Positions 19,601 to 36,393 of a DNA stretch of 64,000 bases are shown here, piece after piece. Source of the stretch: Octopus sinensis (Eukaryota); the NCBI RefSeq assembly GCF_006345805.1, contig NC_043022.1:3224001-3288000 (forward strand), in the 5' to 3' direction. Each line of letters opens with the position of its first letter. Positions within the stretch are counted from its first letter, which is position 1. Position numbers: made by a program.

Positions 19601-22037
19601 CTATCTTTAAAAAAGATTAATAAGTACTGGGGGTTGATTTATTCAAGGCGGTGCCCCAGCATGGCCGCAGTCTAATGACTGAATAAAAGACACAATCACT
19701 AGCGTAGCTAGAGTGTGTGCTAACCGGGGTGGACCTTCCGTTTGTCGCCCTCCGGACCTTACAAAAAGCACATATTGCGTACAGCAAACCCAAAAGTGGT
19801 ACCCCCCTTTAAAAGTACCGTCTGGAGCGGACCTCTACCCCCAGCTACGCTAGTGGACAGAAGCGTTATCATGTCGATGTGTGGAGGCGCAATGGCCCAG
19901 TGGTTATGGCAGCGGACTCACGGTCATAGGATCGCGGTTTCGATTCCCAGACCGGGCGTTGTGAGTGTTTATTGAGCGAAAATACCTAAAGCTCCACGAG
20001 GCTCCGGCAGGGGATGGTGGTGATCCCTGCTGTACTCTTTCACCACAACTTTCTCTCACTCTTACTTCTGTTTCTGTTGTACCTGTATTTCAAAGGGCCG
20101 GCCTTGTCACTCTCTGTGTCACGCTGAATATCCCCGAGAACTACGTTAAGGGTACACGTGTCTGTGGAGTGCTCAGCCACTTACACGTTAATTTCACGAG
20201 CAGGCTGTTCCGTTGATTCGGATCAACCGGAACCCACGTCGTCGTAACCGACGGAGTGCTTCCACTATCATGTCGATGTGGTTCGGTTTTTCCCTGTTGA
20301 CTCAACACAATCAGAGCTTGGCTCTTTGCAGCACTTTAAACAACGAGGACTTAATAAAAGCACCAACCAAACAGTTTGCAAATCTTGTTTTCTCTTTGGC
20401 AACTCTAACGAGAGGATCGGATAAAAACGAGCAACTTAGCCTTTTACACCTCGACGAGAAAATACCAGATATGGTGTATGTGCAAGGTTAATCCTTTAGT
20501 GGTTTGTGTCGTTTTTAATCTGTAAATGTTAATCCCCTTAAAGAATCAGCTAATTACTATCGTTGATCATTCTTTTCTTTCTCACACACTCCTTCTCTCT
20601 CTCTTTCTTTTTCCATAGTTTTTCTGTCTTTATAATATAATAGAATATACATACATACATACATACGTATGTATGCCCTCTCTCTCTCTCTTTCATAATT
20701 TCCCGCTCTTTCTCTCTGTTTTCCCACTCTTTCTCTCATAGTTTTTCTCTCTCTTTACACACACATACATCTTTCGTTATTGTTGTTTTATTTCTTGCAA
20801 AGAACTCAGGGTTGTGTTTGGATTTTGGATATATCGATGTGGGACGTATTGAGAGTTCATCTCTCTCTCTCAGTATTCGCTCCGTTTAACATCTAATGAA
20901 CAGCAACACGCGCCGCATAGATTTTTTATTCCTTCCTTCATAAAGCTGACTTCAAGGTGATGATGGGATGAAACAACTGGAAAATAATAATTCAATAATT
21001 ATTTACTCTTAAATATATTTAAAAAAAAAAATAACGATCTTGAAAGTGAAAGAGAGGGTGAGCAATAGAAGCAGTTAGAGAGACAGAGAAATACAAATAA
21101 TCTACGTTACAATTGGATTAAAACAGAAATATAATAATAATAATAATAATAATAAGTTTGTTGTTACTGAGTTGTTGCGACTAGGTAGCCATGTATACAG
21201 TTTATTTCGGTTCTGATGTTGATCTGAAAAGAACGGATATAACGGCTTTCTGTTTGGATTGCCTTTGCCCTAAACGCATATTCTTTAGTCGGAATTTGTA
21301 GCTTTGAACAATGGAAACCAGCCCGCTCTCTGTTCTGCACGAAGTCCCCGAGCATCTTGAAAAAGCTGACCCAATTCCTGCAGTCTCCGAGCAAGCAGTC
21401 GAACTCGAAAGTTCAACATCGAAAGGAAATTTGAAGACCAACGAATTGAAATTCAAAAACGACCAAGAAGAACCTGAAGCCAACAATTCGTCGGAAAATT
21501 CCGAGTTTACGGATAGCTGGGAATTAACAGAGTCTGTGAGTCCCTCGGAAGGGTCCCGGCAGCAGAGATCTTCCGGATCAAGTTTATTTTCGAACTCCTC
21601 GGAAACCAGTCAAACTGGTTCTCCAGAGATGCCCAAAAAATACGATAAACCCGTTCATGTGGTGTCCAAGTGCGAGGAGATTTTTTGTTTGATCTGCGAA
21701 AACAATCTGAAAATCTGTGGTTCTTCGTATACAAATATTTTTAAGGGGCAGAAAAGGGGAAGCACCACGCTTCCCGAAAGGATATCTTCGTTTATCGGAG
21801 CAGCTGAAGACTTGAAGCTTTGCGATGTGGGAAGTTCCTACATGTGCGCACAATGCCAGCGGAATCTACAAAAGGCAGAATTACTGGAGAAACAAGTCAA
21901 CCAAATTCGGGACACTTTTACCAATTCTTTCTCCAATTTGAGTAGGAACAGTCGCATGAAAAAACGGCGGATCACATTGAACAACCAACAACAGAGTTCG
22001 GTGGAGGTGAAACAATTACAAATACGGATCAAGGTAA

Positions 22038-22071
<34 letters not shown>

Positions 22072-23742
22072 TTCTGCACCATAAACTTTGTATATTGTTT
22101 CAAAGAGGATGCCTCGGAATTCGTTGTCATTTTCGTTAATATTTTGGAAGTATATTATTCTAGTGGCGATCTTTCGTCTCTAGTAGACTTTTCCGTCGAT
22201 TTTCGTAAAAATTTTTTTTTTTACATATGGGCTTGCGGGAACTTTTGAAGTAATATACATACATGTACACATACACCGAGTAAAAAATTTCAGTTATCTC
22301 TTTCTTTCACACATTACTCTGTTTCTTCACACACACTAACAGAAGCACTTCACTTACACAACATACTGTCTGTCTCCCACACCCCATCAAACACACACAC
22401 ACACACACATGTACATCAATGCTTCCCCTGGGCGGTAACTTCAAAAGAACTTCCCTCGTCATACAATCGCTTTCTCTTAGTCTCTTTCGCTCTCATTACT
22501 TCAAAAGTTCCCGCAAGCCCATATGTAAAAAAAAAAAAAATTTTTTTACGGAAATCGACGGAAAGGTCTACTAGAGACGAAAGATTGCCTTATTCTAGTT
22601 GCTATCAAGATGTGACCCCTGGTCAGTTCTATATCTTTACTGTATTATTTGGCATCACTTCTCCTTTGCATTCTCTTCACCCTTTCAACATCATCGTCAT
22701 CGTAGGTCTTCTCCGTCAGGGCCTGGAATTCGACCACATACACCAACAAACCATCGTCATTATCATCACCCTCTTCTTCATCTACCTTTTTGCCATCATC
22801 TTTATCCTCGACATAATCATCACTATTGCTATGACTTCAGTTTATATTTCCATTCACAAGTATTTTGTCACCAGATAATTCCCGGTGTGCGTTTGAGAGA
22901 GAGAGAGAGAGAGAGAGGAGTTCATTCCTACCGCATGACATCTTGGGCGTCATTTTTACGATAATCTCTGGTCAAATTATACTTTGTATGTGAAATTAGG
23001 AAGTGAGAGGGAATTATGTGACAGACTATCGAGTAGAATTGCTATCAATATCTTTCAATATATTTCTAGAGGAAGAAATGAAAGAAAGAAAAAGCATTAA
23101 AGGTATAAAACAAATCAAATTATTGAGGAAAAAAATTCCATAACTACCTCACGGAAGAAACAAAGAAGGGAAAAAAGCAGGGTGGAATTGACGGGTTGTA
23201 CAAAACCAGAACATGGATGTGATTGCAAAAGTATTGTTGCGGAGAATATCCAGCGACAGTCGCTGCAACGACCATCCCACCTTGTGGGACTCATTTCTCA
23301 AACTGGCCACAGTTATTCCAATTTTGCAGAGGAAATTGGCAACGTGGGGTGGGGGTGGCCCTTCGAACACCTGAGGAGGTCTCGATGGTGATCGGTACAA
23401 ACTGATAGCGGCCGGTCAGATTCCTGTGTCTGTTTATCTTTCTCTCGTTTCCATTACGGACAGCGATTCCCGAGTTTGGGGGCTGATGCCACAAACTTGG
23501 AGCCCGGAGAATATGTCGCAGCATGCTGCATCCCAGATTAGGGATTATAGATTGGGATTGGAATTGAAAAGGTTTGGCCTTGTACCCCGCCGCATGATGC
23601 TTGATTCTTCCTGAGAATTACGTTAAAAACTACATGGGACTACATGGAACTAGGAAATCCTAAACAATAGAGGAGGGAAATCGGTTGATCAAACAACTGA
23701 GTACCTATCGCAGAATCCGACGGAGGCCCATTTGCTTTGTAC

Positions 23743-35208: not shown

Positions 35209-35240
<32 letters not shown>

Positions 35241-36393
35241 CATCAGAAGGGTCAATCAATGGTCACTCACAGCATCCCTTTTCCCAGAAATTGTTAAGAA
35301 TCAGAAGAGAGGTTAGCAACTTCTCACAGACAAACCAATATGTTACTGGTACGATCCATGGATGGTTGGATGAATCCATTCACCTTTATACCCCCACCAT
35401 CCTCACCCCCCACCACTACCATTTCTTCAAATATTTTTTCTATAACATGACACTAAACAATTTTTACTAGTTTGTTTGTTTTTTTAATTTGATTTACTTT
35501 AATTGTATTTTGTTTAATTTGATTTGTATTCACAGGCTGCTGAAATGGAAGGACAACTTGTTTCAGAAGTGGAGGGATTACGATCACAAGTCTCCTTACG
35601 GATGTCAATGCCTGACCAACTCGATCAGTTGGATGCACTGCATGCCAAGGTAAGTAGGTCTCAGTAGTTCAATTTATGCTACAAATGTTTCAGTAGCATG
35701 TTAGTTTATTTGCACTAGATGCATTACAGAATACGGCATGCTGTATTCTGATAGGCTTTGTTACAGTTTCCATCGATCCAGTTTCACTTACAAGGTATTG
35801 CTTGACTCAAGGTTATAAAAAAATGACATTTACCCTAGATGACATGCAATGAGATTGAACCAAAGACCTAGTGGTTGTGAAGCAAATTTCTTAACCGTTT
35901 CACTACATTGAGCTTATTTATATATTTACACACTTCCTTATTATCAGACAACCAGTTTGACCAGATCTAAACCCTGTCTGGTGTAAGCAAGCAATACTTT
36001 TGGACTTGTATTTATTCAGGTATTACCAGACGTAATGTCTAGGTTTCATGTTTACTCCAGGAACACAGTGTAGAGAGAAGGAGATGTAGTTTCATCTATG
36101 GCAATATAACTGTGGACGTTATTAAACTTAGCACAAAACATGGAGGTCACTGCTAACTCTCACTGCACACGCAACTGTGTGCTGCCATCTGTTGGTGCAC
36201 TACAGAACCAGTGCAGGAACGTTTTGATAGGCGCAGGAGTGGCTGTGTGGTAAGTAGCTTGTTTACCAACCACATGGTTCCGGGTTCAGTCCCACTGCGT
36301 GGCATCTTGGGCAAGTGTCTTCTGCTATAGCCCGGGCCGACCAATGCCTTGTGAGTGGATTTGGTAGACGGAAACTGAAAGAAGCCCGTCGTA

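Follow-up and report, generated by a model that had tools for sequence, protein, structure and literature searches.

The present analysis concerns a 64,000-nt window of the Octopus sinensis genome (GCF_006345805.1, NC_043022.1 3,224,001–3,288,000, forward strand; all positions below are counted from the first letter of this window) that contains part of a BICDR/BICDL dynein adaptor gene. Upstream of the first recognizable BICDR exon, and on the same strand, lies an ATG-initiated open reading frame (ORF) of 723 nt, which encodes a zinc module resembling a ZAD and terminates at a splice donor. The best explanation of this ORF is that it is a genuine first coding exon, located inside the long 5′ intron of the BICDR/BICDL gene. 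From the sequence, we consider it about evenly balanced whether the ORF is an alternative first exon that, through a putative splice, gives a ZAD-BICDR isoform without the CC1 box. This isoform is a credible candidate for a new domain combination, put forward at the level of a gene-model hypothesis.

The ZAD-Like ORF and Its Genomic Context

The ORF occupies positions 21311–22033 of the plus strand (241 codons), running from a start codon at 21311–21313 to K241. A same-frame TGA (21305–21307) stands one codon ahead of the ATG, whose context, acaATGg, is Kozak-like, and the coding sequence is followed directly by a phase-0 splice donor, AAG/GTAAAT (22034–22039), which agrees with the consensus MAG/GTRAGT at eight of nine positions. 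An original prediction, made from the sequence alone, had described exactly such an exon of 723 bp, with an in-frame upstream stop and a phase-0 GT donor, and it was recovered here at the same place. If left unspliced, the frame would run on through a (GA)n microsatellite to a stop codon at 22082–22084 (22040–22084 in all), adding 16 codons and giving a product of 257 aa with a microsatellite-encoded tail. Among the stop-free stretches of the window, this one, with 258 codons, ranks fourth in length, and the three above it, as well as the next four, all lie in tandem or simple-repeat arrays.

The translated exon opens with an acidic, serine-rich tail of low complexity (residues 1–110, 21311–21640, plus strand as for all exon features), which has no Pfam match and is presumed, from its composition alone, to be disordered. 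The tail is followed by a four-cysteine (C4) zinc module, C126-x2-C129 and C179-x2-C182 with 49 residues between the pairs (21686–21856), and by a long helix after the second CxxC pair (approximately Q183–F207, 21857–21931), which forms the core of the dimer interface in the structural models described below. The cysteine residues of the ORF are found at positions 121, 126, 129, 136, 171, 179, and 182. A basic patch, R215-M-K-K-R-R220 (21953–21970), lies inside a non-heptad linker (residues 208–230) and is possibly a nuclear localization signal, and the last 11 residues, V231–K241 (22001–22033), are amphipathic, with hydrophobic residues at the a and d positions in the register of the next exon. 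The acidic tail, the CxxC pairs, and the RMKKRR patch named in the original prediction are thus all present in the ORF.

Self-BLAST of the window revealed no second copy of positions 20265–22164, the region that holds the ORF. This unique region is flanked by the end of a short interspersed nuclear element (SINE)-like repeat at 20264 and by a foldback element at 22165–22589, which begins 80 nt past the read-through stop of the ORF. A transposon-borne ORF was rejected as an explanation, because the ORF has neither flanking terminal repeats, nor a second copy in the window, nor a transposase or reverse transcriptase domain. More broadly, the ORF might be a non-functional or decaying relic, either a retrocopy or a transposon-borne ZAD-like ORF, with a merely coincidental fit of donor and register; we regard this as improbable. 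In favor of a relic, transposons and microsatellites make up most of the window, the foldback element adjoins the ORF at 22165, and the family of look-alikes described below is multi-member, with clusters of 52–109 members. On the other hand, all 241 codons are intact and the start context is good, in addition to the single occurrence of the ORF, the absence of bracketing terminal repeats, and the lack of the mobile-element domains mentioned above.

Splice Compatibility with a Downstream BICDR Exon

The gene model was searched exon by exon, each exon alone. The first convincing coding exon past the ORF on the plus strand lies at 32080–32295; it has 72 codons, begins and ends in phase 0 (donor CAT/GTAAGT), encodes a coiled coil, and matched the mouse BICDL1 chains 6f1t, 6f1u, and 6znm among the PDB sequences, with E-values of 3e-11 to 5.3e-11. 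The alignment was ungapped, placing residues 2–70 of the exon on mouse residues 148–216, and Q, H, and E of the exon fell on mouse positions 150, 153, and 172. In mouse BICDR1, the AAxxG motif of the CC1 box is formed by A116, A117, and G120, the CC2 box by Q150 and H153, and E172 touches the dynein heavy chain (10.1101/2022.03.17.482250). The alignment and the published positions of the boxes together indicate that the octopus exon opens at the CC2 box, just past the CC1 segment (A116/A117/G120, as compared with an exon start at 148). On this sequence evidence, the exon is a true BICDR1/BICDL1 homologue. The original prediction that the exon at 32080 is of the BICDR type, in phase 0, and starts just beyond the CC1-box segment was therefore supported (E = 3e-11), and the junction peptides read as predicted. 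The exon is preceded by a pyrimidine-rich tract and an AG acceptor (32059–32079, plus strand, tgtgcag/GAG), which scored 13 of 17 on our simple scale.

The donor of the ORF and the acceptor of this exon are compatible in several respects. Donor 22034 and acceptor 32080 are both in phase 0. Only 19 of the 4123 plus-strand GT sites in the window agree with MAG/GTRAGT at eight or more of nine positions, and these 19 include 22034 as well as 32296 and 35650, the donors of the two downstream coiled-coil exons. At the resulting density of 0.30 sites/kb, the chance of such a donor within the last 51 nt of the ORF is approximately 0.015, or approximately 0.005 if phase 0 is also required, and the chance of one anywhere in the 774-nt open stretch is approximately 0.2, by our own, post hoc arithmetic. 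From the 48 acceptors and 31 donors considered between 22034 and 32079, no more than two open phase-0/0 AG..GT intervals satisfied the thresholds, and each of them is part of a transposon copy. Furthermore, the register of exon 32080, in which L2 takes position d, sets I240, L236, and V233 of the ORF at a, d, and a, so that all three core positions in the last 11 residues are hydrophobic, an outcome that, in a likewise post hoc comparison, was matched by 5984 of 100000 shuffles. The heptad register is consistent with the continuous coiled coil that the original prediction had proposed at the joint. If the donor is functional, its location in an intron of BICDR and on the strand of that gene would by default make the ORF an alternative first exon of BICDR.

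A stand-alone, ZAD-only gene is the main competing explanation of the same ORF, possible though doubtful. Such a gene would be nested in the BICDR intron on the same strand, with its own promoter, and would either be left unspliced, giving the protein of 257 aa, or terminate before 32080, in both cases unconnected with the BICDR protein. The long first intron of BicDR-type genes leaves room for a gene of this kind (PMC10917063), and the look-alike clusters described below consist of short mollusc and arthropod proteins of 139–294 aa, which need no C2H2 array or partner domain; none was present in the window. Within 2 kb past the ORF there is a single poly(A) hexamer, ATTAAA at 23096, which could be a poly(A) signal of the nested gene; that there is only one, as compared with 1.64/kb in the window overall, speaks for the splice to BICDR. 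However, the coding-like sequence ends precisely at a donor that matches at eight of nine positions and is in the phase of the next exon, for which the chance is approximately 0.005–0.015 as given above, and the last 11 residues share their heptad register with that exon, whereas the unspliced tail would be encoded by a (GA)n repeat. The short lengths of the cluster representatives, moreover, may come from fragmentary gene models.

Absence of a CC1 Box from the Window

The window was scanned for the CC1 box. The AAxxG motif in an open context gave four matches in the six frames of the window, all of them in repeat or junk frames, and four relaxed CC1 patterns gave a single match on the plus strand of the window, within a repeat, in agreement with the earlier claim that the window holds no CC1 box. 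No coding-like exon with a strong donor was detected in the 21 kb upstream of the ORF. The helix after C182 was considered as a degenerate CC1 box and rejected, as the glycine of the motif is absent from its position and approximately 63 residues separate the helix from the CC2 box, compared with 32 in mouse.

The fly BicDR gene has an intron of approximately 18 kb after its first coding exon (PMC10917063). Given this intron and the repeat-rich genome here, a canonical CC1 exon beyond the start of the window is quite plausible. In another reading, which we consider unlikely, the gene has no 5′ coding exon other than the ZAD-like one and is a BICDR paralogue that has lost the CC1 box altogether, its adaptor being constitutively without it. 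The 21 kb upstream without a CC1 box or any other coding-like exon are consistent with this, and the evidence of splice compatibility serves it just as well as it serves the alternative-exon reading. In contrast, 21 kb is short relative to the introns to be expected here, the fly intron of approximately 18 kb belonging to a far smaller genome (PMC10917063), and the conserved CC1 box is among the features that define the family (10.1101/2022.03.17.482250).

ZAD Likeness and Predicted Homodimerization of the Zinc Module

In ZADs, strict conservation is confined to the four zinc-coordinating cysteines, which are arranged in two CxxC pairs (PMC7913770). Both pairs are found in the ORF, as C126xxC129 and C179xxC182. 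The second pair is followed by the long helix, and the gap of 49 residues between the pairs is one that we take to be typical of ZADs. The N-terminal position ahead of a C2H2 array, in contrast, was not seen: the C2H2 pattern scan of the six frames of the window gave no array and only a single match, at 42718, in the frame of a tandem repeat.

Next to these features of the primary structure, the predicted quaternary structure points to a ZAD. Two copies of residues 111–215 were folded together with zinc using ESMFold2, in three runs and with three controls. Each run gave a homodimer score of 0.70, whereas the highest of the three controls scored 0.00. The models reached pLDDT (predicted local distance difference test) values of 75–77, that of the partner being at least 75, and at least 76% of the contacts were common to the runs. 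Of 30 proteins solved as pairs of one chain, 21 reached the mark for this score, as compared with none of 23 solved as single chains. In the predicted dimer, the long helices pair antiparallel about residue 194, and the first zinc knuckle (127–130), together with residues 158, 161–162, and 172–173, packs on the far end of the partner helix. The predicted interface therefore comprises four groups, 127–130, 158 with 161–162, 172–173, and 185–207. In the crystal structure of the Drosophila CG2712 ZAD, the interface is made up of V16 and H18, L46 and L52, L61 and P62, and K72–L90, with S76–S76 and S82–V16 bonds between the subunits (PMC7913770), a distribution that the predicted interface parallels. 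These models suggest that the C4 module probably forms an antiparallel homodimer. Because the predicted dimer and its interface resemble the solved ZAD dimer, the module is, as modeled, ZAD-like and would work like a ZAD, although it lies outside the Pfam family model.

A feature search of the ESM Atlas gave a further lead, albeit not a proof, of likeness to ZADs at the level of language-model features. The nearest look-alikes scored 0.90–0.91 and shared 182–192 of 256 features; they are mollusc clusters of hypothetical proteins, with representatives of 139–184 aa. The zf-AD family was assigned to 30% of the members of the best named cluster and to 13–84% of the members across the nearest clusters, and the best named matches that shared their family or clan with the top one numbered ten of ten in one search and nine of ten in another.

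Several observations weigh against a ZAD in this ORF, or against its fusion to BICDR. Hidden Markov model searches with Pfam zf-AD (PF07776) gave no match at E-values up to 10 for the 241-aa exon and up to 1 for the 257-aa read-through product, and the sole Pfam match of the ORF, TRAF6_Z2 (E = 0.095–0.1), was below the cut-off. A phmmer search of the ZAD-like exon against the PDB found nothing at E ≤ 10. Single-sequence AlphaFold2 models had pLDDT values too low for judging the treble-clef fold of a ZAD, 51.9 for residues 111–241 and 61.7 for residues 118–210, the long helix being the sole confident element of both models, and Foldseek of the second, low-confidence model against the PDB gave no hit at E ≤ 0.001 and three unrelated ones, all with E > 7. 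Atlas scores of approximately 0.9 are also reached by 4–10 of 100 shuffled proteins, the recognition value, 1979, falls short of the 2300 attained by 91 of 100 known-family proteins, and ten unanimous best named matches are also obtained with one third of shuffled proteins. The look-alike representatives, at 139–294 aa, are near the length of the unspliced 257-aa product and give no sign of a long coiled coil. The dimer tool is calibrated less well for eukaryotes, and the pass may reflect memory of solved ZAD dimers. On the side of the fusion, the donor and register statistics are, as stated, post hoc, and an antiparallel ZAD dimer would have to be reconciled with the parallel coiled coil of BICDR, with, as we infer, a linker of 23 residues to bridge the two. 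The ZAD-like module of the original prediction thus gained support from the Atlas look-alikes and from the predicted ZAD-style homodimer, but not from the zf-AD profile, nor from any sequence match in the PDB.

Among the lower-ranked Atlas clusters, some carry PF12560 (RAG1_imp_bd) on 11–33% of their members, with scores of 0.81–0.86, and one arthropod cluster, with a score of 0.78, pairs THAP with zf-AD; none of these attains the level at which the search tool counts a match as more than a lead.

Proposed Isoform and Its Possible Function

In the proposed alternative-exon model, the phase-0 donor at 22034 would be joined to the phase-0 acceptor at 32080, with the ORF used as an alternative 5′ exon. 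The exon would substitute for the canonical N-terminus together with its AAxxG CC1 box, the binding site of the dynein light intermediate chain; the exon that encodes this box is presumably located ahead of the window. The product would retain the CC2 box, which contacts the dynein heavy chain, and all parts downstream of it. From its N-terminus, the isoform would then consist of a disordered acidic tail, the ZAD-like C4 module, a basic linker, a short amphipathic tail, and the BICDR coiled coil.

In mouse BICDR-1, Rab6 binding has been assigned to residues 382–577 and Kif1C binding to residues 1–353 (PMC2876961). Since the CC2 box and the cargo region would be kept and the light-intermediate-chain site lost, the ZAD-BICDR isoform would presumably activate dynein less strongly on the cargo that it shares with the canonical form. 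The linker of 23 residues might bridge the antiparallel ZAD and the parallel coiled coil within one adaptor dimer, or the ZADs might instead pair between adaptor dimers and so cluster them. The combination of an antiparallel module with a parallel coiled coil suggests, in particular, that pairing in trans could cluster or cross-link adaptors on Rab6-type cargo. Alternatively, the ZAD-like module might be a built-in brake on dynein activation, and the basic patch might act as a nuclear signal. The dominant-negative, nuclear, or rewired adaptor roles put forward in the original prediction are speculation. We hold only tentatively that a functional ZAD-BICDR adaptor exists in this cephalopod, in which the CC1 box has been swapped for an antiparallel, zinc-dependent dimerization module that derives from a ZAD-like family of molluscs of which little has been described.

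Provided that the splice takes place, the isoform would represent a natural adaptor that keeps the heavy-chain contact of the CC2 box and those farther downstream, with none to the light intermediate chain, and would thereby offer a ready-made in vivo test of the contribution of the CC1 box. It would also illustrate the capture of a nested gene for use as an alternative first exon. If the functional fusion is also true, it would place a ZAD outside nuclear C2H2 proteins and outside arthropods and vertebrates. Judging from the look-alike clusters, molluscs may have a family of ZAD-like proteins. Should the ORF be merely a small nested gene, the finding would be an ordinary one.

Comparison with Known Adaptors and ZAD Proteins

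The octopus gene resembles BICDR1/BICDL1 in the ungapped match of exon 32080–32295, with the equivalents of Q150, H153, and E172 retained, and differs from it in the proposed upstream exon, where a C4 zinc module is found and no AAxxG CC1 box. Neither the Spindly motif nor the Rab6-binding C-terminus was seen in the window, where no search was aimed at either. The octopus gene can also be compared with that of BicDR-A and BicDR-B in Drosophila, which is likewise of the BicDR type, has a long intron following the first coding exon, and gives isoforms that differ at the N-terminus (PMC10917063). In the fly, however, as far as the isoform description in that paper extends, an in-frame upstream start adds a low-complexity peptide, and no foreign domain takes the place of CC1 (PMC10917063).

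With the ZADs of arthropod ZAD-C2H2 proteins and of vertebrate ZNF276/ZFP276, the ORF shares two CxxC pairs 49 residues apart followed by a long helix, and a predicted homodimer interface that is distributed as in the CG2712 crystal. It differs from them in having no Pfam zf-AD match and no C2H2 array in the window, and also in its mollusc host and in its likely partner, a cytoplasmic coiled-coil adaptor. ZADs have been placed in arthropods and in vertebrate ZNF276, according to the passages of two papers that deal with their distribution (PMC7913770, PMC12649048). A limited literature collection, searched for ZAD in combination with mollusc or octopus, yielded no account of a ZAD in molluscs; the one paper that contained both ZAD and mollusc terms mentions ZAD, in the relevant passages, for flies only (PMC10547256). 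Likewise, a search of the same limited collection for BICDL1 together with “alternative first exon” found no paper.

Other Exons and Repeats in the Window

The next coiled-coil exon, of 38 codons, lies at 35536–35649 on the plus strand; it begins and ends in phase 0, and its donor, AAG/GTAAGT, agrees with the consensus at all nine positions. Searched alone against the PDB sequences, it gave no match, and it is presumed to belong to BICDR from its position and coiled-coil character only. BICDR exons past 35649 were sought in the window using composition filters and strong donors, which yielded nothing convincing; the remaining downstream exons probably lie beyond 64000 or are too short for the filters used. 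An open interval of 19 codons at 39330–39386 (plus strand) has an acceptor, ttttgcag, and a donor, CAA/GTGAGA, that agrees at seven of nine positions by hand count. It was rejected as a small BICDR exon, its likeness to mouse BICDL1 near residue 249 being weak, and was dropped because the end of exon 35536–35649 seems to cover that stretch of the mouse protein already.

The SINE-like repeat that bounds the unique region of the ORF is approximately 265 nt long and has at least eight copies in the window, with 84–98% identity (20000–20264, 52974–53238, 63662–63928, 12473–12738, 9470–9718, 10555–10745, 48784–48964, and 1559–1747). The foldback element at 22165–22589, which is similar to miniature inverted-repeat transposable elements, has inverted arms of approximately 90 nt (58 nt with 91% and 43 nt with 100% complementarity), and a second copy on the opposite strand, at 57841–58261, is 94.6% identical to it over 429 nt.

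The longest ORFs of the window are found in two tandem arrays, one at 39665–40729 with plus-strand ORFs of 354, 302, and 281 aa, and the other at 33950–34737 with minus-strand ORFs of 254, 239, and 182 aa; these arrays are open in several frames, and their ORFs are repeat artefacts rather than genes. A remnant of a mariner/Mos1-type transposase, spread over at least two frames, is located on the minus strand at 43286–44007, with matches to HTH_48 (E = 3.2e-8) and to a partial-DDE Transposase_1 (E = 1.5e-17). Two retrotransposon tail fragments were observed on the plus strand, one at 3925–4233 with a zf-RVT match (E = 8.7e-4, 20.3 bits as compared with a cut-off of 27.5) and one at 28844–29239, resembling, by eye, a reverse transcriptase C-terminus and without a Pfam match. 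Finally, the base composition was uneven: most of the window has a GC content of 38–48%, positions 26001–28000 have 27.8%, owing to an AT-rich microsatellite of the TA/TATATA type whose frames read YIYIYI, and the region of 56–60 kb is also GC-poor, at 31%.

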